In this document: in pieces, positions 1,721 to 62,987 of the stretch
Layout: each line of letters starts with the position of its first letter
Numbering within the stretch: position 1 is the first letter of the stretch
Assembly (NCBI GenBank): GCA_039621445.1
Contig: CP154954.1
Coordinates: 18,958,642 to 19,022,641, forward strand
Direction: 5' to 3'
Length of the DNA stretch: 64,000 nucleotides
From: Euglena gracilis
Lineage: Eukaryota
Translations under genes and position numbers: made by a program
The notes under the pieces: model-generated
Seen by the model: the letters and a program-made list of their open reading frames with translations, nothing else
Told to the model about the DNA's origin: nothing
Database searches by the model: none

Positions 1721-1941
1721 GTAAACCGCCCCAATAGCACCCCCCCCCCAAATAACACCCCCCCCCCAAATAACCCCCCCGCCTCGGGGGCCGATTTCGA
1801 GCGCCAAAATAACACACCCCCCTGTTTTCCTTTGGTTTTCCATGTAATAATAACACCCCCCCAAATAACACCCCCCCCCTGGGGCCCCAGTTCGGGTGCC
1901 CAAATAACACACCGGGGGGGTGTTATTTGGGGGGGGTTTAA
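1721..1941. mobile_element. Palindromic MITE-like element, family gtaaac-cccccc-aaataa (also 16465-16686)
   Basis: Repeated ccccccaaataacacccc motifs on the left and inverted gggggtgttatttgggggg-tttaa on the right. Relatives at 23962-24344 and 50371-50799. Confidence 0.6.
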
Positions 1942-4100: not shown

Positions 4101-4560
4101 GGATCAGGACAGGGGGGATTATACACTGTGCCCAGGCCTGTTCAGGGATGTTCTAAAATTTTTCAGAAGGAAAATTTCCCCAGACACAGACATGTTTGCA
4201 TCTCCAGGAAATACCAAATTCCAGAAATTTGTGGCCAGATGGCCCCACCACAAACCATTTCTGGTAGATGCCCTGAAATGCGACCTGTACTCAGTAACAG
4301 AGGTTTATGCCAATCCTCCCTGGAAAGGCATCTTTCCTTGGCTCATCAGGCTGAGACTTAACAGGGAAGGGAAATGACTTTTGGTGACACCCATGTGGGT
4401 TTCCAGTCCATGGTGGCCTCTATTAATCAAATGTCAAAGCCTGGGACAAGAATGTTAGTCACTCCCCCCAGGGAGCGTATGTTCAAGAACTGTTGGGGGC
4501 AATCAATGCCAAAGCCAAAGTGGCCCCTGGTTTGCACCATTGTATCAGGTTCCTTTGGAA
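4100..4560 (+). pseudogene. DIRS-borne DNA N6-adenine methyltransferase (Dam-like) domain
   Basis: DMFASPGNTKF...VDAL...YANPPW matches the DxFAS/NPP(F/W) signature of the DIRS MT domain, immediately downstream of RNase H. Confidence 0.82.
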
Positions 4561-4700
4561 CAGCAAAAAGTGCCACATCAAGACATCGAAAATGTCCTGA
4601 GGACTTTGGGACCCCTAAAGCGGTATAACAGTGCCTTCAGAAAATTGTTTGTCATCTTGCAACAAAAAGGATTAGAGCCGTTGCAAGTCTCCAGGATGGA

Positions 4701-7043
4701 CACATATGGCATAAAGTGGAGCCCCCACACTTAAGTGTGGGGTATTGGGGGGGGTATGTGTGGGGGGGGTGGAGGGTGTTGGGGGGTGTGTGGGGGGGGG
4801 TGTGGGGGGGGTGTGGGGTGTGAGCGCGGGCCAGATTTGAGATTTATTTTGGTAAGAGATGCCACCAGAAATTAGGCATTGCCTCACAGAGATTTTGGGG
4901 AATTACATTTTTCACAGGCAAGCTGGCAAACAGTGTACAAGTTTGCGTGGGACTCTGAACTGGATTCAAGTATCAAGTCTTGTCTTCTGGGGTGCTGTGT
5001 GGGGAAGTTTGGGAAGAAGACCCCTGAAGACTGAAAATTTGGTTTTGGCCAGAAGTCTGATGTGGTGAAATTATCTGGACACACTGGACCATCCCCCAAC
5101 TTGCACAAACTTGTAGGAGATTTGCAGTGCAGAAAAGCCCCGTACAAACGTACCTGTGGAGCCGGGGACACTCAGAAGTGAAAAGGCATGGAAGTGGCAG
5201 GCCAGCTCAGCAGCAGAAGGGGGACAAGGCAGAGGAAAGCACCAGTTGGCACACAGTGAGATGCTGTGTTGGGCCACCATGATCAACTCTCCAGATCAAG
5301 CTAGCAGCAGGTGATCCTGGAGTTGGTGCTGCTGTGGATCTTGGTTGGAGCCTGGGCTGAAGGACAGACGAATGTCAATCACAGCCCGCCATCATCATCA
5401 ATAATCTCAATCTCCAAAATGTCTGTCAAGATGTCATTTCAGGGTCAAGTTCAAGTCAAGATGTCAAGTTCAATTTCAAGATCCCAAGGAATCTGTGGTG
5501 GAAGAAAGTTGTCATGTCAAGATTTCAATTTCCCAAGGTCAATCTGTGGAGGATCCAAGGTGTGATGTCCAAGATTTCAAGTTCCCAAGTTCAAGATGTC
5601 AAGTTTCAACGTCATTGGTCAATTACCCCCTGGAGATTTCGGCGCGAGGAGCCTGACCTCGTAAAAAACAGTGATCAGGGTTGTGCAACAGCCCTACAAA
5701 CGCACATCTGGTGGCCATCTTCGAGTTCGTCTACCTGTTGCTGCTGTGATGGCTGTGGTGTGTGCCGCCTCCCCGTTCGGTGCTGGGCCGCTTCAAGGGG
5801 GCTCTGCTCCGGTTTGGCTCGGCGGGGGTCGCCGAAGCCCCGGCTGGACCCCATGGGGGGTCATGTTGTACGGGGTAGGTCGTACGACATGGCTCTCTAA
5901 GGTGGAAAGGCTGGGGTGGAGGTAGGCGGGCCCCACATGGTATTTATCTGTGGATTTGGACATGTTTACAATTATCTGTGGATTCGAAGATTTGGCAATT
6001 TAAATTCGAGAACCGCCATTCGTCACTTTTCCATGTCGCTGCTGCGTGTGTGTGTGTGTGTGTGTTGAATTTTTATCTCCGGCCCGCTCATTTTTTACTT
6101 CCGTTTTGGACAATTGCCTGGCAATTGTTTTTGGGAAGGGGGGTGTGAGCGCGGGCCAGATTTGAGATTTATTTTGGTAAGAGATGCCAGCAGAAATTAG
6201 GCATTGCCTCACAGAGATTTTGGGGAATTACATTTTTCACAGGCAAGCTGGCAAACAGTGTACAAGTTTGCGTGGGACTCTGAACTGGATTCAAAGTATC
6301 AAGTCTTGTCTTCTGGGGTGCTGTGTGGGGAAGTTTGGGAAGAAGACCCCTGAAGACTGAAAAGTTGGTTTTGGCCAGAAGTCTGATGTGGTGAAATTAT
6401 CTGGACACACTGGACCATCCCCCAACTTGCAGGGGGGGGTGTGTGGGGGGGGTGTGGGGGGGTGTGTGGGGGGGGGTAGTGTGGGGGTGTGTGTAGGGGG
6501 GGGGTGTGGGGGGTGTGGGGAGGTGTGTGGGGGGGTGTGGGGGGGTGTTGTGGGGGTGTGAGGGGGTGCCAAATCTGAGGAAACTGGATCTTCGTTCCCT
6601 TGCCTTGCACACACAAGGGGATGATGTTATTTTGGTTCTGGGGGGTCCGGCCCCCCCCCCCCTGGACGAGGCCGAAGGCCGCGGCGCGACGAGGCCGAAG
6701 GCCGAGTAAGTCAAAAAAATGACACCCGAACAGTTGCACACATTCAACTTGGGTTTCAAAAAGAATCAGGCTGTTGCTCACCAATGGTACTGTAAACCAA
6801 AAAAGAGGATATTATTTCCCTTGCCTTGCACACACAAGTGGATGATGTTATTTTGGTTCTGGGGGGGGTCCGCCCCCCTCCCCCCCGGGCCGCGGCCGAA
6901 GGCCGCGGCACGACGAGGTCGAAGGCCGAGTAAGTCAAAAAAATGACACCCGAACAGTTGCGCACATTCAACTTGGGTTTCAAAAAGAATCAGGCTGTTG
7001 CTCACCCATGGTACTGTGGGGGCTCCACTTTATGCCATCACTC
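4701..7043. mobile_element. TIR element (hAT-like MITE) inserted in the DIRS YR ORF, with 8-bp TSD; contains two ~200-bp direct repeats and a nested LTR element
   Basis: TIR atggcataaagtggagcccccaca (4706-4729) / tgtgggggctccactttatgccat (7015-7038). TSD aggatgga (4693-4700) / agaatgga (7044-7051). Removal restores ...LQVSRMELATAL... Confidence 0.88.
4819..6431 (+). mobile_element. Non-autonomous LTR retroelement (TRIM/LARD-like), very recent
   Basis: LTRs 4819-5105 and 6144-6431 both start TG and end CA, differing by 2 substitutions and 1 indel. Polypurine tract gggaagggggg directly before the 3' LTR. No coding capacity seen. Absent from duplicate copy 2. Confidence 0.85.
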
Positions 7044-9399
7044 AGAATGGAGTTGGCCACTGCTTTGTGGGACCTGCATAAACTTTCACAGGCTGATGCT
7101 CGCTGTGCATACGCCTCTCTCCAGTATTTGCCTGGGTTGGAGTCCATTCGTTTTAATCCTCTACTCACAACAGTAAAAAAGGAATGGAATCGTTCAGTTC
7201 AGAGGTATGCTGCTTTTTGGGACTCCCTACCCATTTTGCAGAAATTGCTGAGTGCACAACTGGTTTCAGAGATGCCACTTGTAGAGCTCAGCTGGAGAAT
7301 CATTTTGTCCTTCAGACTTCTGGCTCTCCACATGGGGGTGGATTTAGCAAGACAACGGAGGACCATTTCAGTGGTTGGTGAAAAAATCTAAAATAGCAGC
7401 AGTGAGGGGTCAAAGCCTGACCTTCGGCTCCACATTTCCCCCAAGTGAGGTCGACTGTAAACCACCCCTAATAATCAGACTGAAGGCCCCACACACCCCA
7501 TGTGCCCAGGTAAACCTTTTGGTGGCCAAAAATCGACAATTGAGATGTTTTTTGGGGTCATCTTTACTCTGGGGACGGAGGTTCCACCTAACATTTTTTG
7601 TCGTGCCTCTAGTTTTCTTGGCCACCTAACCTCTTATAGTGGGAAAAGTATTCTTCAACAGCTTTCCACTGCCCAGTTTCACATATTTTTCTGAGCTCAA
7701 CCCCAGTTATTCTCGTCACTTTAACTCCTGTCCCTGGTGGAATGCGGCTCGAATACGACAATGAACTCCAAAGGGCACTGAATTATTTTGGTTAACGACG
7801 ACAAAGAGTCTGCCCTGATTCCACTGAAGGCGGCTTGGAGGGTCAAAAAGAACAGCTCTCCTTGGGATGAAATAGTGGTTGTGAGAGAGACGTTCTCCCG
7901 CAACACGTGCAATGGTGAGATTTGAGCAATTTTTGGAAAAAACCTCAGTCTTTTCTCCTTTCTGCTGTTTGACCATTTCTCCTTATCTTTACATAGTGAA
8001 TCGAACATAATAATTTTGCAATCATTTTCATTTGTGCTAAACCAGAAGATTTGAGCAACATAAAGTGTCTAAACGCCGGGAGCAAATGCAAACGTAACTC
8101 TGACAGGTTGTGATCAAGTGTGGTAAAGGAAAATGAGGCCAGATGTCTCCGAAAGCAGAGGCCAGGAATACAATAAAGCGCCATGTTTCTGAATATTTTT
8201 GTTCCACGCTTTTTTCTTTAAGGGTTCGAAGGGGATGAAATTTAAACTTCTCCCTAACTCCTGGCAGAAGTCACACCAGCTGAGTACCCTAAACCATTCT
8301 ATTTGGTTAATGGCCGGGCTCCTTCGGAACCAATTTGGGCGGGAGAACAATTAGCGTGGTTACCTTGAACATTATAAAATTTGGCTTGCCAGTTTTGAAT
8401 AGACCTGAGATCTTTACCCTGCACGGTTTGGACTGTAAAACCGAAAAGTGGCTCGGAATCTAGGCAGAGGCGGAGTGTTTGGGTGCAATTTTTGATGCGT
8501 TTTGTCGTCATGTTTAGCTCAAAATAGTACCTTTGGGTCTGGGAGGCAAAAGAACATCGTTTTAGGCAGTTTTTGTCTTCAGATTTATCTCGAGTTTTTT
8601 TCGACCTGCTTTTGACATCAAACCCATGAGTTTCAAGCCAAATTGGGGGGGCCAAGTTGGTGGAAAAGCTCGTCTTCGGCTCAAAAAACAGTTTTTTTCT
8701 GGGTTGGAGAGGCCGAAAAACATGGTATTGGACAAAAATGTGTTCAACTTTTTTTGACTTCTTGACCAAAAGCTGGCGTAAAAAGGCAACGTCAAAGCAA
8801 GCCAACGCTGAACAGAACGGCCGAGAGTGGCCAAAAAGAGCAAAATTGGCCAAAATAGCCGTACCTTGGACTGGGCGAGGAGCTGCAAAGCAATCTCAAT
8901 TATGTTAGATAGGACAATTTAATGGCTTCATTTTGAGGTCTGCGGACATTTCCATTGATTCCTAACCACTTTTGAGAAGTTTTTGAAAACGGATTTCTTG
9001 AACCAAAAAAAGGACAAAAGATGGCTAGGTCGCAGGCTGGCCGCGCTTTTTTGGGCAATAAATCAGCCAGGTTGCGAGGTAGGCTGGGGATTGTCGGGAA
9101 CACAAAATTCGGTTAAATAGGGCGTTCCAAGGGCTTTTGCGGACATTTCCTAGGATTTTGCTTCATTTTTTTGATAATTTAAAAAAACGATTTTTTGTCC
9201 CTGGAAAAAACCCCAAGACGGCCCCATAGTTAGGCAACATTTGGCCAAACATGGCCGTACGTCGGGTTAAACGAAGGGTTGAGGGAACCGTAAAGCATGG
9301 TTTGATAGAGCGTTCCAAGTTCTTCATTTTTGCTGTCTGGACAGCATGGTGCTGACTGCCCAAAAGGTGACCACCATCAAAACTTTTCCTTTGGGAAAA

Positions 9400-11600
9400 A
9401 GCTGTAGCCTGGCAGGAAATTAGTGAATGTTGAACCACGTGAGGTTAGCATACAACTTCCCGAGGCTTTCTAGATGGCACCGTAGAGCACATGTTACCTT
9501 TGCCTCCCAATGTTGCCATCTGGACGTAAAATTTGCAAGGTTTTGTTTCCTGGGGCGGCAAAAGGACCTGTTTGGAATGTGATGAAGGGTTGGAAATCTT
9601 TTCCAGGATGATGAATCATTTTTTTGTCCAAGGTGTAATCCCCCGCTGTCCTGTCCCCGTCTGCTGAGGGGGTCTGCCAGGTTTTGGCTGGAGGGGACCC
9701 ATTTTACCTCCAGGGTGTCATTTTTCAGGTCAGCCAATGAAAAAGTGGTTGAAAAACTCCATTGAAAGGGTTCTTTACCCTCCTTTTGCTCAGAAATAAA
9801 TAATTTCCTGATTGTGCACACATGCAAACTCCTGTGGTTTGCTTTGTAAGGAAATGAGTACGTGAGTGTTTGCTTTGTGAGTAAATGAGTACGGTGCGGT
9901 GATGAGTACGTCCTACAGATATACATACACCTTAATTTCCCTTTCATGCCATCCTTCTTTGAATGCACCGTTAGGCGCTGAAAACCATGAGACATGACGG
10001 GAAACTGGGATTATGTTTCACCCAAAGGGGGCTGCTTGTGACTGCCACACCTGGTCCCACCTTGTGCCTGAAAAAAAGCTTTAGGGTGTTGTTCAGTGGT
10101 ACATTAGCGTATGCATGTTTTACATTAATGTTTGTCCCCAAGTGACCCTTTTTGAAGGAGAGTGGATGCCTCGCATGTGGTCTCGGTAAAGTTTTTACAA
10201 GGAAATATGTGTTTATTTCTCTGCAGTTTGAAATAGAACTCCATTTTGAGTCTCTGAGGTTCTTTTAAGGCAAAACGTCATTTTCTGTTATCTGAGAGTT
10301 CCTGATTTGACACCAGGAAGCAGGGAAGCAGAGGGGCTGTAAACACACTCCTTTTTTTTGATTCTTTCAGAATCTTTTAGGCCCGCTCCAAATTGGAGCC
10401 CTGTGTGCCTGTCACAGACAAAGTTAATGACACTGGGGAACGATCCCGTCCCTGATCAACTTAACGTTGTGAGGGCTGGTATGCTTTCCCCACCATGGCA
10501 AAAAGAGCCTTAATCTCTGTGGGAGAGCTGTGTCCCCACAAGCCATTTCTGCTAGATTCGCCCTTTCCTTAATTGGAATCCTGGGGGTGTTGCCAGACCT
10601 GGGATCCCTTGGGCCTGTGGGGCTGGCTAGTCTACTTAGTGGGCCTGCCGTTGGGTCTCTGCTGCAGCACACCTTGGACGCTGAGCAGGTGTGGCAATGG
10701 AGTTTTCCACTTCCCTCCTGATGAGACAGCTGGGCAGGGATTGCCTCTGCCCTTGTCTTTTCCTGCGTGCTTCGGGCCTTTTCCCGGACCATCCTCCACC
10801 TTTTCCTTTTCTATACTTCTTGAACTTGAATATATCGGTTGGGGAAAGTAAAATAAACGACATTCCCTTGTGGGAAGGGTCAGTGATGGAGGTGGAAGAT
10901 TTGGAAAAAGCTCCAGGGAAGAACTACGTTTGGCTTTGTTGAGCTTCTCCACCTCATTCTGGATCTTTAGATCCTCTGATGAACACAACTTCTGTTCCAT
11001 CTGTTCCACCGAGTGTGAAAGGTAAGCCTTTTGCTCTCCTCGACCAACCATCTGCCCAGTTCCAAAAGATGCCGAATCAACACCACCTTGCCAGCTTGCA
11101 TTCCTTCGTCTATCATTGCATACATCATAGTAAATTTAGAATTATTTGCTGGCTTGACGTCAGCAGCTTGTCCAGCTTGGACGCGGAGCCCTGCCGGTGG
11201 ATGTTGACCTCCGGCTTGTCCTTCGGGCCTTGGAAATCGGGTAAACCTTCGAACAATGAACGGATATCCAAATTAAAAGAGTCCAATTCACGCCAGAGCA
11301 TTACCTTCTCTATCTCCAGGTTCGCGTGCAGGCTGTGGCAGGTTGTCTCCCAATCAACGGGTTCTTCACCCTCCTACTGTTATTCCTCGTTCGTCTTCCT
11401 GCGCTCGGCCGTTCGCGTCCAACGTCACCGCCATCGTGTCTCGAAGTTCACCAGTGGTTCGTCGAAAGTTCAGGCGGGGTAACTCTAAGGATTCCCGGCG
11501 GGGTTCCCGTCCTGATACGCGCGTATCCTGGGCCAGGTTTTTTGACATTTGCTTGAAGGAACTCCGGCCTCCTTGTCTGCGTAAGGCAGAAAGCTACGAA
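9400..11600 (-). mobile_element. Second, more decayed DIRS-type element (gag-like, pre-RT, RNase H end, MT)
   Basis: ALPQRLRLFLPWWGKH...LIRDGI resembles PLFQRLRTCLPWWQKH...LIQNGV of copy 1. VKWVPSSQNLADPLSR matches the RNase H end and FTSRWQHW...LYAN the MT. Gag-like LPDFQGPKDKPEVNIHRQ...DKLL..QQ near 11150-11270. Confidence 0.8.
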
Positions 11601-14746: not shown

Positions 14747-17700
14747 CATGGGCGGCGTCGCCTGCTTGCTATCGGGGGATCGGATTCCGCATCACTGTCG
14801 ACGTTCACCATGTCACCCAGGGTGCCATCGAGGTCCACATAGGAAGTCGAGGAGACACTGCTGCAGTCATCTTCTGCCGTCGAGGTCTGCATGCCCAGAG
14901 CCCATGAATTCTGACGAGGTGGTTCAGGTTGTCCGGCCGCAGCTATTTTTGTACTCAGTGAACGTTCATCCTCGTCACGGCCCATTGTACCACTTCTCTT
15001 CTGCCCCAATCTGGGCTTTCTATTCTTGTGTCTAGGACCTCCACTTCCCGCAGTGCCTTTTGCAGGGGAAATGGGCTGGGGCTCGGGCTGTCTTTTGCAG
15101 GCGATCAGAGACACCTTCTTGATGTTTCTTGATCTATGACTTCAGCATTTGGAGAGCCTGAGGAATGTTGAGAGTGAACATGTGAAAAAAGGAGAGTGTC
15201 CTTACCTTCAACTGGACCAAAAAGTTCCAAGCTCGATATGTAACCAGGATGGTCTCTCTGAAGACAGGGAATGAGCTGTGGCAGCAGGAAAGACAGCAAC
15301 ACACCAGTCCTCCTCACTGCCACAAATAAAATTCTGCTGCGTTCCTTCTGTCGCTCCTTCAGGTTCGGTCACAGCTTCCCCTTGAAAAAGAAGAAAACCG
15401 GAAGGAGATGGCCGTAGAAAGTCGCAAACAAAAAAATACGCCCGATTTAAGTCGCCAAGCATTCTGCGATAGAACGCGACGAGAAGGAAGAGGTTTCGCT
15501 CGGGCTTTTCAGACTTTTCGGCCGTGCTCTTTACTCAGACACCTCGGGCTCCGCACTTTGCCCTTGTGAGGCCATGCCTTGTTCGCTGGATCAAAAGTTC
15601 CTCGGATCCCCTTCCTCCCCTGTCGGTTTGCCTCGAGGGAGTGCGGCATCCCTGAATGCGACTTTGTTCGCGTTTGAAGTGCTTTTGGAATTGTGTTCAG
15701 GTGGACTCTTTTTTATTGATGACGCAAGGTGTGAGGCCGGCTCGCCGCCTCACAAGGTCTTTGTTCTTCGCCCTCGGTGTCCCTTCCTCCCTGGTCGGTT
15801 TGCCTCGAGGGAGTGTGAAACAGCACGCTAAACAGAGACCATTACAAATTTTGAGACAGTCTGCGAGGGGTATCGAGAGCGTCCTCGACAGAGTTAAAGG
15901 TCGCCCGCAAGGGATCGAGGGCGTCGTGCGCTGTCCCTGGGCTTCGAATTGCACCCCCCCCCGGTCCTGTTTCTGTAAAAGCCTGAAAAAGATGTCCGCC
16001 CCACCATTGAGTACTCCCGGGAAGTCTGACCAGGGAGGAAGTGACCATGAGGGCGGAGCACAAGAGGGGGGTGAGATCCTGCTTTGAGTGCCCGATGTTT
16101 TGTTGTGTTTGTGTTCTTCTTGGCGGGGTGCTTCTTACTGCGAATTTGGTGCCGGAGTCGGCGGTGATGTGCTCTTCGACACCGACTTGGCGAAGGTGAA
16201 CCTCAGTGGCTCCCCGTCCCTTCGATGTATGTGGGTCCGTTTCCGCCACCCCCCCCCCTCCCCTGATGGGGATGCTTTCCTTTTTCGGGTGGGTGTGGTG
16301 GGCTCACCCCCCTCTTGTGCTCTGCCCTCATGATCACTTCCTCCCTGGTCAGACTTCACGGGAGTACTCGACCATTCGGGCTCCGCACACTCTGGGGGTG
16401 AGACTTTGTGCACGACCCCTTTTTCAATTTTTTTCTTTGCTGAATCCACCGCCCCCAATCGTAAGTAACCCCCCCCAAAAGCCCCCCCCCCCCAAATACC
16501 CCCCCCCCCCCCAAATAACCCCCCCGCCTCGGGGGCCGATTTCGAGCGCCCATATAACACACCCCCCTGTTTTCCTTTGGTTTTCCATGTAATAATAACA
16601 CCCCCCCAAATAACACCCCCCCCCTGGGGCCCCAGTTCGGGTGCCCAAACAACACACCGGGGGGGTGTTATTTGGGGGGGGTTTAATGTGCTGAAAAAGC
16701 TGTGGTTTTTTTCCTTTGACCAAGTTCGCACACCTCCTCACTGGACAATCCCAGTTTTTTGTACATCAAAACTCCTGCCCCCCCCCCTGGTGCTGTGGGC
16801 TTTCCAGTGGGAAATTGGAATGCAAAAGGTTTCCAACAACTCTTTGTCAAAAAGTTGATCCTATTGGATGTCAAGGTTTTTTTGCCATCCAAGCTCCACA
16901 ACAGAGGGGGCTTGACACCAGCCTTCTCCAGACATTCTATGTCTCGTTTTCCCATTCCAACAGGAGTCAAGAGGTTCAAGTTCAAATATGGCAAAGGCAA
17001 AGTCTATGGCATCCAATTCAAGTCTGGGAGAGGAAAGGGCTATGGCAGCCAGTGTAAACCAGGGTGGTCCAAAGGTTCGGAATCCTCTCTTGAAAATGTC
17101 ATTCCACGGCTTATGTCCTCAGGAAAGGCAAGGGGAAGGGATGAAGCATCAAAGTCCCTAGGAGGGGGGGCAGCCAGCAGAAGCAAGCTCAGAAGGAATC
17201 AGGGTCAGCAAGCCCCCTCTGCCCAAGAACGGCAAGCCAGACCCAAGATTGATCAGGGGAGAGATCCCCCAGCTCAGCCAAGGGGAAAGGGCAAGCTCCC
17301 AGCTGACCCCTGCCCAGATATCCTATCCAGACTGGCAAGGGCTCCTGGAAGGAGTGAAATGGCCCCATCACAGTCCCCCCCCCCCCCAGTGCAGTTGGAG
17401 GAAGGAATCATTCAGGGGCTTGAATTCACAGAACTGGTGCCATTGTTTCAGAGATTGAGGACATGTCTGCCATGGTGGCGGAAACATGCAAACCGGTGGG
17501 TGGTGTCCCTAATTCCAAATGGGGTTCAACCAGACCACCCCTTACCCCAACTACTGTCAAGAAGACAGCAACAAAAGTCAGCTCAGGACATCAGCCTGGC
17601 TTCAGAAATCCTGAGGGAGTACCAAGAAAGTGGGTTAACCATAAAATTGTAAATGCCACAGGCACTGCCCATCTGGAACCCTGGTTTGTGTTGTCAGAAC

Positions 17701-20517
17701 CAGAAGGGGAGGGGGTCAAACATCGACTTATCACCGACTGTCGAGATCTAAATCAATTTTGCTGTCTAGAAAGGTTCACTTTGGAAAACATGACCACCAT
17801 TTTCCCCAAAGGGGACTGGGCAGTAAAACTAGATTGCCTACTTTCATCTGGATCTGGAAAAAAAAATTCAGAAAATATATGTCAGAATTCAGGTGGGCCC
17901 AGACCTGTGGGAGATTCAGGGGGCATGTTTCGGACTAAGCACCCTCCCAAAATTGGTCATGTCAACAATGAAAGTCATGCAAAAACTGTGGAGATCAAAG
18001 CAGTTACAGGTGTTTGTTTATTTGGACGACATCATTCTGTTTGGTTCAGCAGAAAATCTGGTCAAAAGACATTTGTTGACCATGCTGAAAACCTTAGGGG
18101 AGGCTGGGTTCAAGATCAGCCGGAAAACGTCTGTGTTAACACCAACCCAAAGATTACAACATCATCGTCGATCTGGTCGGGTTCATCGTCGATCTGGAAG
18201 AAGGTCAACTGGAGGTGCCCCCCCACAAATTAAAATCCACCAGAAAGGAATTAGGCAAGGTGATTCTGACCCAGAAATTCAGTCGCAGAAAAATTGCCAG
18301 CCTTCTGGGACAAATCAGAAGTTACCTCCCAGCTCTGCCATTTTTGCAGTTAGTAACCCTAGAACTGTTAAAGTTCAGCCAGCTGAATCAGGAAAAAGGC
18401 TGGGATTTTGCATCGGCATTCCAAAAAAAAACTGAAGGAGGAAATAAAATTTCTAAAGACATATCTGCAGCCAGGCTTGGGCAGACCTTTTCTCCAGCAG
18501 GCAAAAAGGGTACTGCACTCAGACTCCTCCACATGGGCATGGGGGGGGGTGGACTCCTCCCAAAACAAAGTCATACAAGAGTTTTGGCGGGAGCAAAATT
18601 GTTTGCATATCAATGTAAAAGAGTTGATGGCAGCAGTGCACACAGTGAAAGCCTTTGCAAAGCTTGGAGAAACTGTTCGGCTAAACGTGGACAATCAGGT
18701 GGCTCTAAGTTATCTCACCAAATTGGGGGGGGGGGGCAAAAAAAACAGCAACTCAATCATTTTTGGAACCTCTGTTTCGCTGGTGTTTGAAAGCTGCAGG
18801 TCCAGTGGGTAACCTCCTCAGAAATGTTGGCAGACCCCCTCACAAGGTGGGATCAGGACAGGGGGGATTATACACTGTGCCCAGGCCTGTTCAGGGATGT
18901 TCTAAAATTTTTCAGAAGGAAAATTTCCCCAGACACAGACATGTTTGCATCTCCAGGAAATACCAAATTCCACAAATTTGTGGCCAGATGGCCCCACCAC
19001 AAACCATTTCTGGTAGATGCACTGAAATGCGACCTGTACTCAGTAACAGAGGTTTATGCCAATCCTCCCTGGAAAGGCATCTTTCCTTGGCTCATCAGGC
19101 TGAGACTTAACAGGGAAGGGAAATGACTTTTGGTGACACCCATGTGGGTTTCCAGTCCATGGTGGCCTCTATTAATCAAATGTCAAAGCCTGGGACAAGA
19201 ATGTTAGTCACTCCCCCCAGGGAGGGTATGTTCAAGAACTGTTGGGGGCAATCAATGCCAAAGCCAAAGTGGCCCCTGGTTTGCACCATTGTGTCAGGTT
19301 CCTTTGGAACAGCAAAAAGTGCCACATCAAGACATCGAAAATGTCCTGAGGACTTTGGGACCCCTAAAGCGGTATAACAGTGCCTTCAGAAAATTGTTTG
19401 TCATCTTGCAACAAAAAGGATTAGAGCCGTTGCAAGTCTCCAGGATGGACACATATGGCATAAAGTGGAGCCCCCACACTTAAGTGTGGGGTATTGGGGG
19501 GGGTATGTGTGGGGGGGGTGTGGGGGGGGTGTGTGTGGGGGGGGGGGGGGGTGTGTGGGGGGGGGGGGGGTGTGTGGGGGGTGTGGTGTGGGGGGGTGTG
19601 GGGGGTGGGTAGTGTGGGGGTGTGTGTAGGGGGGGGTGTGGGGGGTGTGGGGAGGGGGGTGGGGGGGTGTGGGGGGGTGTTGTGGGGGTGTGAGGGGGTG
19701 CCAAATCTGAGGAAACTGGATCTTCGTTCCCTTGCCTTGCACACACAAGGGGATGATGTTATTTTGGTTCTGGGGGGTCCGCCCCCCCCCCCTGGACGAG
19801 GCCGAAGGCCGCGGCGCGACGAGGCCGAAGGCCGAGTAAGTCAAAAAAATGACACCCGAACAGTTGCACACATTCAACTTGGGTTTCAAAAAGAATCAGG
19901 CTGTTGCTCACCAATGGTACTGTAAACCAAAAAAGGGGATATTATTTCCCTTGCCTTGCACACACAAGTGGATGATGTTATTTTGGTTCTGGGGGGGTCC
20001 GCCCCCCCCCCCCCGGGCCGCGGCCGAAGGCCGCGGCACGACGAGGTCGAAGGCCGAGTAAGTCAAAAAAATGACACCCGAACAGTTGCGCACATTCAAC
20101 TTGGGTTTCAAAAAGAATCAGGCTGTTGCTCACCCATGGTACTGTGGGGGCTCCACTTTATGCCATCACTCAGAATGGAGTTGGCCACTGCTTTGTGGGA
20201 CCTGCATAAACTTTCACAGGCTGATGCTCGCTGTGCATACGCCTCTCTCTAGTATTTGCCTGGGTTGGAGTCCATTCGTTTTAATCCTCTACTCACAACA
20301 GTAAAAAAGGAATGGAATCGTTCAGTTCAGAGGTATGCTGCTTTTTGGGACTCCCTACCCATTTTGCAGAAATTGCTGAGTGCACAACTGGTTTCAGAGA
20401 TGCCACTTGTAGAGCTCAGCTGGAGAATCATTTTGTCCTTCAGACTTCTGGCTCTCCACATGGGGGTGGATTTAGCAAGACAACGGAGGACCATTTCAGT
20501 GGTTGGTGAAAAAATCT
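14747..20517. repeat. Segmental duplication, copy 2
   Basis: Colinear with 1-7389, including shared frameshifts, the shared catcgtcgatctgg micro-duplication and the shared TIR insertion. Confidence 0.97.
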
Positions 20518-29240: not shown

Positions 29241-54015
<24,775 letters not shown>

Positions 54016-55678
54016 GTGGCAGAGATGAGTGACACTTCCAGTATTAATCGGTTGAGCAACATCTTATAACAAATATTGAACTGCACAATAAACTTAACAA
54101 AACTCAAAAAAAAATTTTGTCTGGAGTGCGTCAGCCATTGCGTTCCTCGAAAGATAAAAGTAAACGTGTTCCATGCCAGGTTTGGAGTAGACGTTTTGGG
54201 GGGGGTTAGGGACCCACATTTGGGGGGGGGGGGTCAATTTTTGGTGAAATATTTTGGGTGCTTCGTGCCGAAAATAGAGACCTCTCCCCTTCAGAGGGTG
54301 CCCACTTGGCCCGACCTACTGGGTGGGAATACCCACCCAGTAACCCCACGTGGGTGATCAAAATTTTTTATTTCTATTCTCTTTGGCTGAACGACCCATT
54401 GCATTTTAAAGCCACTAGTATGGGTCAAGGGATGAAGCCACTGCCAACGAACAATAGAGAAATTGCGGATTGCAGTATGCATTTCCCCCCCTTGCATTCT
54501 CAGGGCCCTGCCAAGGTACAAGGGTCAGAACAAAGGTAAATGAGATTCGGAACTCCATTGAAAGAGACTGATGGGAGGAAATAAAAGATGGTGGGAAATT
54601 CAAAAATACTTGGACACATAACAATTTGAGTATAAACCGATCAAAATAAGAATGTTACTAGCTCGAGTGAGCACTTTGAGGGGGCCCAGGTCCCATATTT
54701 GGGGTCATCTATGCGTGTGTCTGCGTGCGTTTGCATGACAGGAATGGCCCATCCCACATTAATGTCCGCCCTCCTACAGGGTATCACTGCGGACTACCTC
54801 AGAAGGCACAGTCACATGGTGAGGTCGTGGCCCAGCACGATGCTTGGTGGAAGACCGGCACATGGTGTTTGGCATTATTATTCAACCGAATGATGAAACT
54901 TTGGGGGTGGTGCGGGTCACGGGGGGGTCACGGGGGGGGGGGGGGTTACGGGGGGGTTAGGGGGGAAATATGCCACTTTGGAGGTAGTCGGGGGGTAGCA
55001 TCCATCATGTTGCATCCCATCACGAGAAGGGCGGCACGCATCCAAAAAATCGGTGATTCTCAGGCCCAAAAAGTGGTCATTTTGAATCAGTTTTGGGCAA
55101 TTTTTGAACACAAAAAAAAACGCTTTTTTGGACCGAAAATGGTCATTTTGGGGTAATTTTTTATGTCTGAAATTGGTCATTTTTTTCATTTTTGAAAGGG
55201 AATTTTGTTAGGATTTTCTTGACCATCACATTTTTTGGGATTCATTTTGGGCCATTTTTTGACAAATTCTGTTTTGGGTATGGAAAAGCACCAATTTTTG
55301 GCACTTTTTTTAGGGGACAAGATTTTTGGCCATTTTTGGTGTGAAGGTGCGTTGGGCGTTGGGTGCCAAAAAGGGGTTTGGTTGTCCAAATGGAAGGTGG
55401 GGTGAGGACAATTCTTTTCTGTTTTTTGGGGGGTGATCTTCCACACAAATCTCATGTCCCCTCCCCCCTTCTTGCCATGAAATTCTTTCCTACTTGCACA
55501 ATATCCTCTTTTGCCAATGGACATATTTTGGGCCAAATTGACACAAATAAAAAAAATTAAATTCCTACACCAAAAAAGCGCCCTTGTTTGGGTCGAAAAT
55601 TTTTTCACCTCAAATCTTGGCATTTCCTTCCATTTTTTGACCATGTGAAAGCAAATTTTCGCTGGTTTCTGATACGAA

Positions 55679-55797
55679 AATTGTGTCCAGAACGCCGGTT
55701 CGGGCGTGAAGCCGTGTTCCAGAACGAACGGGCGGCAGCCCGAACCGGCGTTCTGGAACACGGCTTCACGCCCGAACCGGCGTTCTGGACACAGTTG
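55679..55797. repeat. Near-perfect palindrome (gccggttcgggcgtgaa family); relative at about 60589-60728
   Basis: tgtgtccagaacgccggttcgggcgtgaagccgtgttccagaacg / cgttctggaacacggcttcacgcccgaaccggcgttctggacaca. Both copies are followed by tgaaaccgtg. Confidence 0.8.
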
Positions 55798-55883
55798 TTG
55801 AAACCGTGTATTAGGGGCTCTGGCTTCCCGCCCGTTCATGGACGCATGGTCATTTGTGACTCCTCTATGCAGATTTCTTCTAA

Positions 55884-57426
55884 ATGAACGCCGGTCAGGT
55901 TGCTACCGTTTGCACCAGTGCACTGCCCCAACCCCCCACACCAGCTGAATTCTTTGCTGGCCTTGAGGCTGCCGACGCACCTCGGAAAACAGCAGAAGGC
56001 CATAAAAATTTTTTTTGGGGATACGTTTGTCGACAGTTGCCCCACTGGTGGATTGGCAAAAAACAAAATAGTGGCTCTTGCAGTTGCGCGGGATTTCCAA
56101 AAGGTTTGCGAACTACGTGGGGCAACGTTTGACTTTCTGGATGACTGGCTGGTGGCATTTGCCTTCTGGACGGTAAAAGTCACGTGCCTTTTTGATCACG
56201 GTGACGAGAAGCAACAGGCAGCCGCCGTCCAGCGAAACAAAAACCAAAACAAAAAGCGTAACAGTGCAATCAACAGAATGCCAAGCAACCGCTCCGGGAG
56301 CAGCTTATGCTGCCCCGTGACAACCCCAAAATTTGTGGGGTGGAGACATGGCAGCGGCAACTGGCACTGCTGCCAGATGCCGCTAATCCCTCCTTACCAT
56401 TCTGGTGCTCCTGCAAAATTATCTGCAAAATTCCGGTCCCGTCAAGGCATAGTGGGCCGGCCTGTTTTTTTTGACGTTGTTTTGTTTTGTTTTTTTAATT
56501 TTAACAATGTTTTTTTTAAAAAAAACAAAAAAACGCCCACTAGGTTTTGCATGGAAAATTTTTTGAATGAACATTTTCAATCATTTTTGGCAATTTCTGG
56601 GTAATTTCTGCCAAAAACTTCCTTCCACAAAAATGAAAAAAAAGGCATAAAATTCCATTTTTGTTGCATTTTGGATGTTTTTGACCATTTTTGGCAGTTT
56701 TTGAACTGAGTAGGATTCAAAATATGGTTTGGGTGTTTCATAACGAGTTTTTTCAATGAAATTTTCCTTTTGTTTTTTTTTTGATGTTTTTTTTTACTGT
56801 TTTTTTTAAAAAAAACAAAAAAATGCCCACTATGCGTCAAGGCAACTTATGCAACGTTTCCTGGGGCAGCCAATTGGGCGCGGGACGTGCTTGACCGGCC
56901 AAATTGTCTTCAAGGATCTGGCCCGCCGTCCGGTGGTGTCTGCTTTGGTGGACGAGTTGGGGTTGCATCGGGCGGCAAAGGCTGTGGGCATGTGCCCACG
57001 CAATACGGAAAAGTATTATCGTGCTCCCCAAGACGACATTTGTCGTCAGGCAGCGCAAGCTCTCCAAAACGTGTACATTTTTACATTTTAATTTTACCTC
57101 ACATACACGTATTCCTTTAGCAGAGGCGGCTGCCCACGGACATTCCCAGTTCTACCCGAACCTTATTGACGCCGAAGAAAGAAGAGCCACGGGTTGTGGA
57201 ACTGTTGGACAGTTCGGATGACGAGGTTTTGCAGATTCACCAGCTTGAAAATTCATTTTCCACTCACTCGAGGTCATTGTGGACGGCGGTGTTGCACCAC
57301 CTGTCACACTTCCTAAAGAGGATCCCCTGCCGGCTAAGCATCTCCAATGCTCCAGCGGTGAAGCCAGAGGAGGTAAAAATCCCGTTTGACGGCAGTTTTA
57401 CACTACTGTCTTCAGGAGCCGGCTGA
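55884..57426 (+). pseudogene. Decayed tyrosine-recombinase (Crypton-like) gene with unknown N-terminal domain, one GT-AG intron (57070-57120) and a MITE insertion
   Basis: After removing 56448-56842 one frame reads DNPKICGVETWQRQLALLP...PFW...IVFKDLARRPVVSALVDELGLHRAAKAVGMCPRNTEKYY, resembling YR CPV, HxxR and T..Y motifs. Splicing joins QALQN to QRRL...VVELLDSSDDE in frame. Confidence 0.6.
56448..56834. mobile_element. hAT-type MITE with perfect 8-bp TSD
   Basis: TIR catagtgggc / gcccactatg. TSD cgtcaagg at 56440-56447 and 56835-56842. AT-rich interior. Confidence 0.92.
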
Positions 57427-57613
57427 CCAGAGGCTGACAATCGACGATCTGTCGCATTACAGGCAACAATTAGCTAAAAATAAATTCGAATATAACGCCT
57501 TCGCGTTCTCTGAGCAGGGTCGTTTATAATTTGTCTCAATTTTCCCCCACCCCGCACCTCCCTGTTAAAATAAACTGTCCCTGTTTTCGCCCTTCCAACG
57601 CCGCAGTGCCAAA

Positions 57614-58566
57614 CGGTAGACTGGGGGGGGGGTAGTGGGTAGTCGGCCGACTAGTCGGCCGACCAATTGGGTAGTCGGCCGACTACCCACTCTAATGTAC
57701 TAACGGGTCAAAACCGCCGACTTTTAAGCCCCCCCCGGTAAATTTTTTTTGTCCAAATCACCTCAACACCAGTCAAAACCCACCCAAATGGCTCCAGAAC
57801 CCCCCAATCGGGGGTGAATATGCAAAAAAATTGGGGGAAAATGTCCATTTTGGGCCACTTTTGACAAAAGTACACCTCTCCCCATTTTCAATATAAGTCA
57901 AAATTTGCACAAAAAAAGGTCTTATCAAGCCAAGTCTATTGCCAACATAGAAGGGATTTTGTTATTTGAGTGGGGGGGCGGGGGGGGGGAGCCCCCCCCC
58001 CCCCCCGAATAGGCCAAAGTGAGCAACAAAAACGACTTAGCCCCCAGTATGTTGCCAACACAGAAGGGATTTTGTTATTTGAGGCTCGGATTGGGGTGGA
58101 GGGGGGAGTTTTCTGCCTCTCGTGATACAGAATGCTTGCATTCCTGAAGGATTTTCATGTAATCCCTGTTTCATCAGTGGTTTTTTACCCCTCCGGACCC
58201 CCATCAAGGGCCCACCGACCCCCCACGGACCAAAGATTTCCATCTGGGGGTGTTTATTTAGGCGTAAGACACCTATTTGGACCCATCCGGACCATTTCCG
58301 GGTGATTTGGGCCCGCCACAGACCATTTTTATGACCGCCGACTAGCCACCGACTAGTTTGCATTGGATTTTGTTCATGGGGGGGGCTTAAAAGTCGGCGG
58401 TTTTGACCCGTTAGTACATTAGAGTGGGTAGTCGGCCGACTAGTTGGCCGACTACGCACTACCCCCCCCCCCCCATGTCTCGCCGACCAGCTACCGACTA
58501 GGCCTAGTCGGCGGACCAATTGGGTAGTCGGCCGACTACCCACTACCCCCCCCCCCCAGTCTACCG
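57614..58566. mobile_element. Foldback/TIR element with long modular inverted arms
   Basis: cggtagactggggggg...gtagtcggccgactac...ctctaatgtactaacgggtcaaaaccgccgacttttaagcccc is inverted at 58378-58566. Confidence 0.82.
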
Positions 58567-60144: not shown

Positions 60145-61164
60145 AGCTTCGTGTTTTTCCTGATTTGACGCGACGAGTAGAGGGAAGCTGTGACTGCTTT
60201 TCGGAAAGGAAGGAATTTTTTTTTTGGTCCGGCCGGCTGGCAAGACAGACATTGGTCCGGCTTGACGGACGGCTGGCGAAAAAATGCTTCGTCCGGACGG
60301 ACGGCTGGGCGTCCAGCATTGGTCCAGCTGAAGAGGTCCGGACGGCTCGGACGGCTAGCCGGCCAGCCGCCCCCAAGCCCCTTTTTTCGACCCCCCCCCC
60401 TTAGTGACCCCCCCCCCTAAGTGACCCTTCGGGGGGGGTCCTGGCCGAGACAAGATGGGGGTCATTTGGGGGGGGTAATTGTAATTCCCGTTCCTTTCCG
60501 AGTGTCCATTGTTTGACATATCGCATGATGGCTGAGAAGTGAAAACTTTGGACGGGTTCAAGTTACAAGAGCTGTTATCTATATCGAGAATTGTGTCCCA
60601 AACGCCAGTTCGGATGTGAAACCTGTGCCTGGGACGTCGGTTCCGGGGTTACCGCCCGGTAGCCCGGTAGCCCGAACCGGCGTCCCAGGCACATGTTTCA
60701 CGCCCGAACCGGCGTCTGGGACACAGTTTTTGAAACCGTGGCTAGTGGGCTCCGGTTTCATGCCCGAACCGGCGGCTGAGGAATCACGGCCAATTTCGCC
60801 CAAAATACCCATGTTTGGGGCAGTTTTGGGCTACTTTGGCCCAAATGGGCCGCCGGTCAAAAATGGCAGATTACACACTTATGAAGCCATGTTACCCATT
60901 AATCGAAAGCTCTTCTCAAGGGCTTTCGACAGATGGCCATAGGATTCGGCGGCTCCCGGACCTGGCCTGGGGGGGGGGTAGTGGGCCGACCCTAGGGTCG
61001 GCCCAATACGACCCCAGGGTCGCTAGGGTCGCTAAAGTCGTTAAGGTCGACCCCCCCCCACAGGATGTGGAGTCTAGGGTCGGCCCACCCCACGACCTCG
61101 CCCGCCCCAAAAAAAATGTGGAGAATTTTTTTTGCCCATTTGAACAGGAATTGAAGTTGGACTT

Positions 61165-62560
61165 GATGTCGTTTTGGGGGGCAAGTCCCTTGTGTTTTCA
61201 AACTGTTTTGGGGGGCAAATCCCTTGTGTTGTCCAACCGATCGAGGGCCCCAAAATAATAAAATCCCTTGTGTCTCCAAGTCGTTTTGGGGGGCAAGTCC
61301 CTTGTGTTTTCAAATCGTTTTGGGGGGCAAATCCCTTGTGTTGTCCAACTGATCGAGGGCCCGAAAATAGTAAAATCCCTTGTGTCTCCAAGTGCCTTGC
61401 GTTCAAGTTGTTTTGGGAGGCAAATCCCTTGTATTGTTCGACCGATCGAGGGCCCCAAAATAATAAAATCCCTTGTGTCTCCAAGTCGTTTTGGGGGGCA
61501 AGTCCCTTGTGTTTTCAAATCGTTTTGGGGGGCAAATCCCTTGTGTTGTCCAACTGATCGAGGGCCCCAAAATAATAAAATCCCTTGTGTCTCCAAGTCG
61601 TTTTGGGGGGCAAGTCCCTTGTGTTTCCAAGTTGTTTTGGGGGGCAAATCCCTTGTGTTGTTCAACCGATCGAGCTCCCCAAAATAATAAAATCCCTTGT
61701 GTCTCCAAGTCGTTTTGGGGGGCAAGTCCCTTGTGTTTTCAAATCGTTTTGTGGGGCAAATCCCTCGTGTTTCCAACTGATCGAGGGCCCCAAAATAATA
61801 AAATCCCTTGTGTCTCCAAGTCGTTTTGGGGGGCAAGTCCCTTGTGTCTTCAAATCGTTTTGGGGGGCAAATCCCTTGTGTTGTCCAACTGATCGAGGGC
61901 CCCAAAATAATAAAATCCCTTGTGTCTCCAAGTCGTTTTGGGGGGCAAGTCCCTTGTGTTTCCAAGTTGTTTTGGGGGGCAAATCCCTTGTGTTGTTCAA
62001 CCGATCGAGCTCCCCAAAATAATAAAATCCCTTGTGTCTCCAAGTCGTTTTGGGGGGCAAGTCCCTTGTGTTTTCAAATCGTTTTGTGGGGCAAATCCCT
62101 CGTGTTTCCAACTGATCGAGGGCCCCAAAATAATAAAATCCCTTGTGTCTCCAAGTCGTTTTGGGGGGCAAGTCCCTTGTGTTTTCAAATCGTTTTGGGG
62201 GGCAAATCCCTTGTGTTGTCCAACTGATCGAGGGCCCGAAAATAGTAAAATACCTTGTGTCTCCAAGTCGGTTTGGGGGGCAAGTCCCTGGTGTTTCCAA
62301 GTTGTTTTGGGGGGCAAATCCCTTGTGTTGTTCAACCGATCGAGCTCCCCAAAATAATAAAATCCCTTGTGTCTCCAAGTGCCTTGTGTTTTCAAGTCGT
62401 TTTGGGGGGCAAATCCCTTGTGTTGTCCAACTGATCGAGGGCCCCAAAATAATAAAATCCCTTGTGTCTCCAAGTGGTTTTGGGGGGCAAATCCCTTGTG
62501 TTTCCAAGTTGTTTTGGGGGGCAAATCCCTTGTGTTGTTCAACCGATCGAGGGCCCCAAA
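61165..62560. repeat. About 112-bp satellite (about 12 copies) made of three related subunits each containing (a/g)tcccttgtgt
   Basis: Unit caagtcgttttggggggcaagtcccttgtgttttcaaatcgttttggggggcaaatcccttgtgttgtccaactgatcgagggccccaaaataataaaatcccttgtgtctc. Confidence 0.95.
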
Positions 62561-62916
62561 GGAGGCGGACGGACGGACGGACGGACGGCTGGTGAAAAAA
62601 GCGAAGGTCCGGACGGACGGCTGACCTTGTGGGCTTGGTCCAGACGGCTGAAGAAAATGCACTTGGTCCAGCTAGCCGGCTAGCCGGCTGGCCGGCCCGA
62701 GTCCTTGTAAGCGCAGGCGTCTCAGTGCACGCGACTCTGGAGCTGGGGTGCTGCTAGCCTGGCCACATCTGGCTAGCCGCGGCCAGCCGCGGCTGGCTGG
62801 CAAAAAAAAGGAGGAGGTCTGGCCAGCCAAGATTTGGTGTTCTGTCCCGAAACTTTCTTCCGCTTCATTTTGTTGGACTAGTCCTTTTTTTCTTTTGATA
62901 TTGAGAAGTGTATCGT

Positions 62917-62987
62917 GCACACAGTGTAGTTGGTGCAGCATGCAGTTCGGAACTGTCAGGTCGCGGGTTCAAACCCCGCTGTGTGCA
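62917..62987 (+). tRNA. tRNA-like sequence (Pro-CGG-like; pseudogene or SINE head)
   Basis: Acceptor gcacaca/tgtgtgc, T-arm gcggg-ttcaaac-cccgc, anticodon loop tt-cgg-aa. Positions 8-9 appear to be missing. Confidence 0.5.

Follow-up and report, generated by a model that had tools for sequence, protein, structure and literature searches.

Two decayed copies of a predicted Cre-like tyrosine recombinase gene family, one of them joined to a PHD-type zinc finger, in a repeat-rich stretch of Euglena gracilis DNA

Results

Two copies of one gene family in the window

The DNA analysed here, referred to as the window, is a stretch of 64 kb from Euglena gracilis (contig CP154954.1). It carries two features that are decayed copies of one repeated euglenid gene family: an open reading frame (ORF) on the minus strand, ORF A, and a plus-strand relic of a gene for a predicted Cre-like tyrosine recombinase (see Table 1). 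An initial annotation had linked the two by a common N-terminal stretch and had assigned them to a Crypton-like DNA element with a PHD chromatin reader. The common stretch was readily recovered: the strings quoted for it are present as written (11 of 25 residues identical, W-x6-LFD in both copies), and ORF 52924-53406 (minus strand) and frame 55888-56604 (plus strand) share 19 of 65 residues without gaps (BLASTP, E 2e-9). By tblastn inside the window, the shared stretch gave E values of 4e-7 and 1e-6. The likeness is also family-wide. When 1.84 billion representative proteins were searched with ORF A (52921-53406), 66 protein clusters were found at E≤1e-3 and 33 at E≤1e-10. Conversely, 86 family proteins searched against the window by tblastn (E≤1e-3) produced 146 matches, 80 at 52-53 kb and 66 at 55-56 kb, and none elsewhere in the 64 kb. 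Since the matches are confined to these two places and the family comprises 66 clusters, the pair is not due to chance. Two weak tblastn matches of the N-terminal stretch, at 17685-17888 (E 0.009) and 2942-3121 (E 0.25), lie in the reverse transcriptase (RT) region of DIRS-like copies and were discarded as chance.

One member of the family, P0001, is EG_transcript_15018 of the Euglena gracilis transcriptome (EukProt). Another, P0042, is recorded under the carnivorous plant Genlisea aurea, presumably as contamination from its prey. The full-length proteins, about 425-491 amino acids (aa) in alignment A1, follow one plan: the shared N-terminal part is followed by FRTYVNA, VPSSxxQFP, QRxNIL..TGxRAE..RL, GTMKNLP, LCPxAA, LFR, TFKDVARRAAMTRL and AKYFGVxxNTxxVYH. 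On database contigs of 1.5-3 kb, the recombinase ORF takes up 1.2-1.5 kb and begins at a conserved Met. Only 9 of the 66 clusters reach at least 375 aa, the others being shorter, and many short family ORFs lie on contigs of 1-2.7 kb; frequent short ORFs of this kind are as expected for copies in decay. Pattern scans of metagenome contigs with the N-domain alignment A3 (73 stretches) and with P0011, a PHD-finger protein described below (185 stretches), yielded no confirmed relatives, and none was confirmed among 116 pattern stretches in viral contigs and two in prokaryote genomes, a thin test that used one or two peptide patterns each.

The full-length proteins are predicted to fold like Cre

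An AlphaFold2 model of the family member P0021, built on alignment A1, had a mean predicted local distance difference test score (pLDDT) of 83.5. Foldseek matched this model to 51 PDB chains at E≤1e-3. Cre (3crx_A) came out best, with an E value of 9e-8 and a TM-score of 0.63 on the target, and among the best 30 of the 51 matches all were tyrosine recombinases, with XerA, XerH and the Tn1549 and lambda integrases following Cre. VIA-align superimposed residues 28-409 of the model on residues 13-341 of the Cre variant Tre (Z 18.4, root-mean-square deviation 4.1 over 288 residues), and 16 further Cre entries scored Z 17-18. As judged by the model, then, the full-length family proteins are two-domain Cre-like tyrosine recombinases with a core-binding and a catalytic domain, which bears out the tyrosine-recombinase origin initially suggested for the relic. 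Since the match spans both Cre domains, residues 21-409 of the model aligning to Cre 18-341, the N-domain (the first ~120-125 residues) corresponds to the first helices of a Cre-like core-binding domain; the separate, unrecognised domain of the initial annotation dissolves into it.

Searches at the sequence level were far less telling. The Pfam recombinase model PF00589 matched none of ten family proteins at its gathering score, and two of the ten below it (15.8 and 13.9 bits, cut-off 27.1; E 0.012 and 0.046), both on the TGxRAE region. Helix-turn-helix models of Pfam fell below threshold on the C-terminal part of six of the ten. No match to PF00589 was obtained with the frames of the window, and no recombinase was retrieved from the PDB sequences with the A1 profile (E≤10) or with frame D of the relic. 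Since the Cre-like fold is missed by Pfam and profile searches, the family is probably unannotated in euglenid genomes. As leads only, the language-model neighbours of P0021 were eukaryotic ALOG/Phage_integrase clusters (score 0.98) and those of its first 195 residues were QRICH1-like, ALOG and Phage_int_SAM clusters (0.94), which would fit a eukaryotic recombinase of Crypton or DIRS type.

To map the catalytic residues, cre of phage P1 was aligned with the family profile A5 by hhalign. Over 45 columns (E 0.0076, probability 5%), R234 of P0021 fell on Cre R173 and K267 on Cre K201, and a local alignment of the C-terminal parts (E 0.19) placed R361 on Cre R292; we take these Cre residues to be Arg I, the hairpin Lys and Arg II, respectively. 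Taken alone the pairings are weak, but they agree with the fold match. Among the A1 rows that have a residue at the position in question, R234 is conserved in 23 of 24, K267 in 19 of 19, R361 in 15 of 16, R362 in 16 of 16 and Y392 in 14 of 14. Three residues ahead of R361, where Cre carries His289, Asp (D358) stands in 15 of 16 rows, so the His of the HxxR box is not kept, and the Trp/His position is His in 9 of 14. The tetrad of the family is accordingly R-D-R-Y or, with the Lys, R-K-D-R-Y. From the conservation of these residues, the family is probably an active, non-canonical recombinase.

The plus-strand relic is a dead recombinase gene

The nearest relatives of the relic are P0063, P0055 and P0065/P0076. 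P0065 (439 aa) matched it by tblastn in three parts: 55891-56238 corresponds to aa 42-157 (E 8e-11), 56268-56453 to aa 302-363 (E 3e-6) and 56903-57073 to aa 382-438 (E 2e-9). Between the first two matches about 142 codons (P0065 aa 158-299) are gone, which takes away the latter half of the core-binding domain along with Arg I and the hairpin Lys; R234 and K267 of P0021 lie in this region. What the relic retains is the N-terminal helices and the last 139 residues only. In this last part, PKICGV, PFW, FKDLARR and NTEKYY, all noted earlier as recombinase-like motifs, are collinear with the C-terminal half of P0065; KNQ, listed with them, sits at the internal deletion junction and is no catalytic motif. 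The Tyr at 57014-57016 is aligned to the Tyr of P0065, and K-D-x-x-R-R and Y are conserved across the family.

Reads and contigs of two DNA runs (X1 and X3) and two RNA runs (X21 and X24, of each of which 5-6% was read) were placed on 52400-57600. In the N-terminal part of the relic, aa 1-44 of P0063 match 55884-56015 and aa 43-115 match 56011-56226 in the next frame. Some other copies and both of two X24 RNA reads lack one base at 56004, and the frameshift near 56004-56015 is therefore a defect of the window copy or of a subset of copies. The relic cannot act, because about 142 codons with Arg I and Lys are lost, one base shifts the frame and a 387-nucleotide (nt) insertion interrupts it; this copy is dead.

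The GT-AG intron and SIM-like acidic tail (57063-57120 and beyond) that had been proposed to end the gene found no support among homologues. P0065 reaches its end at a point equivalent to 57073-57091, where frame D stops; none of the 86 family proteins matched beyond 57073 by tblastn. DNA depth also drops toward its lowest level by 57272-57445.

The relic is flanked by other repeats. Just upstream of its ATG lies a palindrome (55679-55796) with 48-nt arms that are 98% complementary; a related copy is found 5 kb off at 60665-60766. The depth at 55706-55879 was 656,000, and the palindrome is probably another short foldback repeat. Directly downstream there is an inverted-repeat unit (57623-58471) with perfect 65-nt arms at 57672-57736 and 58378-58442 and with GTCGGCCGAC-rich palindromes.

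ORF A joins the N-terminal helices to a PHD-type finger

Residues 1 to ~120 of ORF A are 39-44% identical to the N-terminal helices of the nine closest family members. Past this shared part the family goes on to FRTYVNA; in ORF A a PHD-type finger follows instead. In the window copy the finger reads C-x2-C-x17-C-x2-C-x4-H-x2-C and is then cut by a stop codon, so that the PHD finger originally called here amounts to C4HC only (Pfam PHD, E 0.18). The call holds for other copies. P0011 (196 aa), whose N-terminal part is different, shares 91% of the residues of the finger and has the complete C4HC3 set. Its scores for the Pfam models PF00628 and PF13831 stay below the cut-offs (PHD_2, 19.4 bits against 28; PHD, 17.3 bits against 24). 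Nine of its ten weak PDB sequence matches are PHD fingers (E 0.03-0.9), and its structure model (pLDDT 40.9) was too poor for a fold search.

The two lesions of the finger are mended in other copies. Position 52923 is G, giving CAA (Gln) on the minus strand in place of the stop, in 767,270 of 768,122 X1 depth units, in all 16 RNA reads of X21 and in 31 of 32 of X24; P0011 also has Gln there. Two bases are skipped at 52880 in 139,801 of 289,873 depth units of X1 and in 3,337 of 5,185 of X3. With this omission the frame runs to ...GSFLCKACRLP-stop and C4HC3 is completed. Because most other copies read CAA at 52921-52923 and about half lack the two bases, the family mostly codes for an intact 181-residue protein, and ORF A of the window is one of its decayed members.

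The N-terminal part is linked to a PHD finger in several independent sequences, namely ORF A, P0059, P0012 and P0014. P0059 is collinear with ORF A over both parts (34% identity over 125 residues, E 4e-17), and in P0012 and P0014 later points of the recombinase are joined to later points of the finger. At the junction in ORF A, 18 and 16 contigs of X1 and 8 and 10 RNA reads of X24 have loose ends at 53044 and 53045, respectively, and the loose-end consensus upstream of the PHD part translates like P0011. The combination of catalytic domain and PHD finger in a single protein, envisaged by the initial annotation, occurred in 0 of the 66 clusters and in 0 of 12 of a second cluster set. Longer relatives containing P0011 were not found either, which is weak evidence, and P0011 was the only relative of near length for the read-through ORF A. 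As a candidate continuation of a recombinase tail P0011 was rejected, its N-terminal part giving no significant match to the tails of P0025 and P0071.

The ORF A unit is a very abundant, transcribed repeat

ORF A lies in a unit of 1,157 nt (52472-53628) bounded by 54-nt inverted repeats. In one contig the two arms are joined via 30 other letters (joint 52525 to 53581), which suggests that short, arm-only forms of the unit also exist. ORF A may be cargo of the unit, an insertion into it, or the remains of the unit's own recombinase gene. Beside the unit, the AAAACGTGTTCAG motif found at the ends of the 54-nt inverted repeats recurs in the arms of a small hairpin (53629-53745), which may be an arm-only relative of the unit.

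Summed contig depth is not equal to copy number and is used here for relative abundance only. The lowest DNA bins (54314-54661) had a summed depth of 203 in X1 and 13.5 in X3. The bins of the ORF A unit (52400-53791) reached 405,682-1,078,429 in X1 and 14,782-69,490 in X3, those of ORF A proper being 405,682-1,071,819 in X1; ORF A thus belongs to a very abundant repeat. The coding bins of the relic had 3,775-30,376 in X1 and 138-513 in X3, about 20-150 and 10-38 times the lowest bins, and the relic belongs to a moderately repeated family. Both copies are thereby part of something repeated and decayed, as had been supposed at the outset, rather than of a single clean gene. Run X3 is labelled as a second organism. 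It contained the same repeats with the same variant letters at depth ratios similar to those of X1, and the two labels therefore stand for very close relatives or the same species.

RNA depth over ORF A was 4-22, with a ratio of about 3:1 in favour of the orientation that sense transcripts take in a stranded library (17.5-22 against 6-8 in X24). The short family with N-terminal helices and PHD finger is thus transcribed. The RNA reads were mostly 92-99% alike and carried the letters of other copies, so that the transcription is that of the family and not of the window copies. Over the bins of the relic there were 0-1.5 RNA reads.

The insertion in the relic resembles a nonconventional intron

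The 387-nt insertion, which like the one-base frameshift had escaped the initial annotation, separates the frames 56262-56447 and 56843-57091. The 8-nt direct repeat CGTCAAGG stands on either side of it, at 56440-56447 and 56835-56842, and its ends are the inverted repeats CATAGTGGGC and GCCCACTATG, which are paired in both the minimum-energy and the centroid RNA fold. When 395 nt are omitted, 144 open codons result that align without gaps to aa 300-438 of P0065 (32% identity, E 2e-23). In the register 56445-56839, CA stands at +4,+5 and TG at -7,-6. According to PMC3935182, nonconventional introns of euglenids have direct repeats where they join the flanks, inverted repeats that pair their ends, and CA and TG at these same offsets; the insertion has all three of these sequence features. 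It is alike in the same respects to the introns and MITEs (transposable elements of the miniature inverted-repeat type) treated in PMC3935182 and PMC12501133, and differs from them in that it sits in a dead gene copy. With a summed depth of about 806,000 in its middle (56576-56749), compared with about 203 for the lowest bins, the insertion is a member of an abundant repeat. A splice joint from 56445 to 56840 was not among the best 15 of 96 joints, in a relic that has nearly no RNA reads. According to PMC12501133, a MITE-like origin of euglenid nonconventional introns was still an open question in 2025, and the insertion offers a concrete case for it.

Table 1. Features of the ORF A unit and of the plus-strand relic (positions in the window)
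Feature	Positions	Strand	Remarks
ORF A inverted repeat, left arm	52472-52523		54 nt, 96% complementary to 53575-53628
32-nt tandem repeats inside left arm	52524-52707		~5.5 units; same orientation as the right array
PHD-type zinc finger (C4HC3)	52865-53022	-	Broken by TAA at 52921-52923 and two extra bases at 52880-52881
ORF A, 161 codons	52921-53406	-	Recombinase N-helices (aa 1 to ~120, 53047-53406) joined to PHD finger
Recombinase/PHD junction	53044-53045	-	Other DNA and RNA molecules diverge both ways
32-nt tandem repeats inside right arm	53437-53518		~2.5 units
ORF A inverted repeat, right arm	53575-53628		Partner of the left arm
Decayed gene for a predicted Cre-like tyrosine recombinase, P0065/P0063 subfamily	55884-57094	+	ATG at 55884, stop at 57092-57094; tblastn of P0065
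N-terminal helices of core-binding domain	55884-56238	+	Two frames, one-base shift near 56004-56015
Internal deletion junction	56239-56267	+	Gap between P0065 matches
Catalytic domain, C-terminal half, first part (PKICGV, PFW)	56262-56447	+	Ungapped alignment to P0065 once the insertion is removed
Inverted-repeat insertion, MITE-like or euglenid nonconventional intron	56448-56834	+	8-nt direct repeats, paired ends
Catalytic domain, end	56843-57091	+	FKDLARR at 56909-56929 (place of HxxR); candidate nucleophile Tyr at 57014-57016
GT-AG intron candidate and acidic-tail frame	57063-57120; 57121-57426	+	Present as sequence; gene membership unsupported

Discussion

A recombinase-only DNA element as the preferred reading

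The reading that we prefer, and that we hold to be somewhat better than an even bet, is that the family is the recombinase of a Crypton-like, recombinase-only DNA element. It builds on the fold, the conservation of residues, the high relative depth, the defects of both copies and the transcription of the short form, all of which were observed. Mobility of the element, the recombination reaction and the origin of the short form by deletion are what we infer from them. By analogy with Cre and Cryptons, a recombinase tetramer would bind short repeats at the ends of the element. Tyr392 (P0021 numbering), aided by Arg234, Lys267 and Arg361, would cut and rejoin the DNA, with Asp358 in place of the HxxR His of other recombinases, and the element would come out in circular form and integrate elsewhere via a short identical core. 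The short N-PHD form would be an internal-deletion derivative of a longer element, in which a recombinase gene and a PHD-coding part have the same orientation and the PHD part, of P0011 type, is a second ORF or a C-terminal extension. The many different junctions between N-terminal part and PHD finger are as internal deletions of a unit with the recombinase first and the PHD part behind it would yield, and the recombinase and the PHD part may share one element.

Several points weigh against this reading. In the window and the database proteins, the recombinase-bearing form comes without observed ends, target-site repeats, empty sites or insertion polymorphism, and its full-length members are database proteins on contigs of 1.5-3 kb, a full-length genomic copy not being among the observations. 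No sequence method gave a significant recombinase match: PF00589 stayed below threshold, the A1 profile retrieved no recombinase and the hhalign probabilities were 5% or less. As the canonical His of HxxR is missing and replaced by Asp, recombinase activity is uncertain. The 54-nt inverted repeats that enclose ORF A do not fit Cryptons and are lacking at the relic, and ORF A might simply sit in an unrelated inverted-repeat element. The N-terminal part of P0011 has no significant likeness to recombinase tails. Finally, the abundance of the copies was read from summed contig depth, which is no copy number, and the transcripts concern the family and not the two copies of the window.

Alternative origins

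The same findings could come from a host multigene family that derives anciently from a recombinase and now codes for immobile DNA- or chromatin-binding proteins like DUF3504/QRICH1 or ALOG, in which case the window would contain two pseudogenes. Since full-length members are known only from the 1.5-3 kb contigs, such a family is possible, and these intact members are indeed of transcript size. The exchange of the HxxR His for Asp, the PHD association with its hint of a chromatin role, and the QRICH1-like and ALOG clusters among the feature neighbours would all suit it, as would the lack of element ends and empty sites in the window and the database proteins. We nevertheless consider a host family unlikely. 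Arg, Lys, Arg and Tyr are nearly invariant here, whereas domesticated Crypton genes have lost the Tyr and the second Arg, as described in PMC3212892. By relative depth the relic has tens of close copies and ORF A far more, truncated ORFs are common (9 of 66 clusters reach 375 aa), and the two decayed copies lie 2.5 kb apart within a repeat-rich stretch. It is improbable, in our judgement, that the recombinase is instead a module of something larger, be it a retroelement of DIRS type, a large DNA virus that has integrated or a giant cargo transposon, and that the copies are its fragments. DIRS-like retroelements do occur in the window, in two copies 98% alike with RVT_1 and with RNase H-like and NPPW methyltransferase-like motifs, and many such retroelements as well as integrated giant-virus genes are reported for Euglena gracilis in bioRxiv 10.64898/2026.05.21.726589. 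However, the family matches are confined to 52-56 kb, and the RT-bearing copies are more than 35 kb away; the DIRS-like ORF 6846-7391, which is not established as a DIRS recombinase, is unrelated to the family profile (hhalign, E 0.68); and the recombinase ORFs, which start from the conserved Met, measure 1.2-1.5 kb on contigs of 1.5-3 kb.

The initial annotation had derived both copies from an ancestral single protein with N-domain, PHD finger and recombinase, in which the PHD finger may steer integration to marked histones. At least three types of junction link N-terminal parts of the recombinase to a PHD finger (ORF A/P0059, P0012 and P0014), and this variety is most easily explained by a PHD-coding part downstream of the recombinase in the parent element. 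A separate second ORF of P0011 type fits that arrangement equally well, though, and intact recombinases end 20-90 residues past the Tyr with no PHD finger. The absence of proteins with both catalytic domain and PHD finger (0 of 66 and 0 of 12 clusters) and, as weak evidence, the failure to find longer relatives of P0011 point the same way. Since the N-domain forms one continuous part with the core-binding domain, the order N-domain, PHD finger, recombinase is excluded, and the single-protein ancestor with PHD-steered integration is the least probable of the explanations weighed here.

Comparison with known systems

Cryptons are recombinase-only elements of fungi, oomycetes, diatoms and animals, with no RT, no terminal inverted repeats, direct repeats of 4-6 bp at both ends and an R-H-R-Y tetrad, as characterised by Kojima and Jurka 2011 (PMC3212892). 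The present family resembles them as a repeated and decayed tyrosine recombinase with no RT near the window copies, and its N-terminal half has Crypton-derived QRICH1-like and ALOG feature neighbours. It differs by its R-D-R-Y tetrad, by the PHD association, by the lack of any match to recombinase models at a curated threshold and by the 54-nt inverted repeats of its abundant short form; the host, moreover, is a euglenid. Crypton-like, the term used in the initial annotation, is a fair working label, but the tetrad is R-D-R-Y and not R-H-R-Y. Recombinase-only elements of the Crypton type are rare and poorly understood. A search of the literature on Crypton, tyrosine-recombinase and DIRS elements in Euglena, with supplements and subscription journals outside its coverage, found no description of this family and no paper on Cryptons, or on a recombinase-only DNA element of this sort, in Euglena.

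With Cre, Xer and the integrases the family appears to share the two-domain fold over nearly all of Cre, with Arg I, Lys, Arg II and Tyr in matching places. The identity is 12-15%, however, and the N-terminal domain is longer (about 190 against 130 residues). Asp instead of His-II, a variable Trp/His position (His in 9 of 14) and the occurrence as eukaryotic repeats further set it apart. Tyrosine-recombinase elements are known from Euglenozoa in the form of the VIPER and TATE retroelements, which are covered in PMC6681497. DIRS, Ngaro, PAT and VIPER/TATE are likewise recombinase-bearing repeats of eukaryotes, and DIRS-like copies are present in the same window, but the family copies have no adjoining RT or RNase H and the DIRS-like ORF 6846-7391 is unlike the family. 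That no RT is adjacent had been noted from the start and stands: there is none within about 35 kb of either copy, the sole RVT_1 match of the window lying at 2984-4030 (E 1e-6).

ALOG genes originate from part of a recombinase. In ALOG and in DUF3504/QRICH1, as in the short form described here, the N-terminal part of a recombinase is used without the catalytic domain; here it is joined to a chromatin-type zinc finger. The short form comprises only about the first half of the core-binding domain, and it is a very high-depth repeat between inverted repeats, in contrast to a conserved single-copy gene. For DUF3504/QRICH1, recombinase parts reused as DNA-binding or regulatory domains are described in PMC3212892. 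The abundant, transcribed fusion of a recombinase N-terminal part with a PHD finger would show in action how recombinase parts turn into proteins that bind chromatin or DNA, a course of events put forward for ALOG and DUF3504.

On the whole, the initial observation holds and its interpretation is supported in part: the two window copies, both of them dead, belong to a divergent family of predicted Cre-like recombinases in euglenids, which has short derivatives linked to a PHD finger. It is a good deal more speculative, and rather doubtful, that the copies reveal an undescribed euglenid tyrosine-recombinase transposon with long inverted repeats and 32-nt subterminal repeats, a Cre-like R-K-D-R-Y recombinase and a PHD part, and that a deletion derivative of it, present at the order of a thousand or more copies, expresses the 181-residue protein of N-terminal helices and PHD finger. 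In such a transposon, one possible role of this small protein would be to anchor the recombinase, or its DNA sites, at marked chromatin; another would be that of a truncated competitor that keeps transposition down.

Other features of the window

The DIRS-like retroelement occurs in two copies that are 98% alike, 1-4822 matching 14747-19574 and 6432-7389 matching 19563-20517. The first copy contains an additional 1.6 kb at 4823-6431, and a third fragment lies on the minus strand at 9420-10010. The RVT_1 match (2984-4030, E 1e-6) belongs to this element, and its RNase H-like and NPPW adenine-methyltransferase-like motifs were read from ORF translations. The copies fit the methyltransferase-bearing Euglena retroelements as presented in bioRxiv 10.64898/2026.05.21.726589.

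Between ORF A and the relic, a block at about 53869-54001 had an RNA depth of 8-17 in X21 and a DNA depth about 15 times that of the lowest bins. Many loose ends lie in front of 53869-53929 and past 54000-54001, the picture that a small exon would give in a spliced gene or gene family. Further downstream, a tRNA at 62915-62987 on the plus strand (34.9 bits) was the sole Rfam match in the window at gathering score. At about 61074-62753, long overlapping ORFs in several frames with recurring peptide blocks suggest a tandem array with units of ~110 nt.

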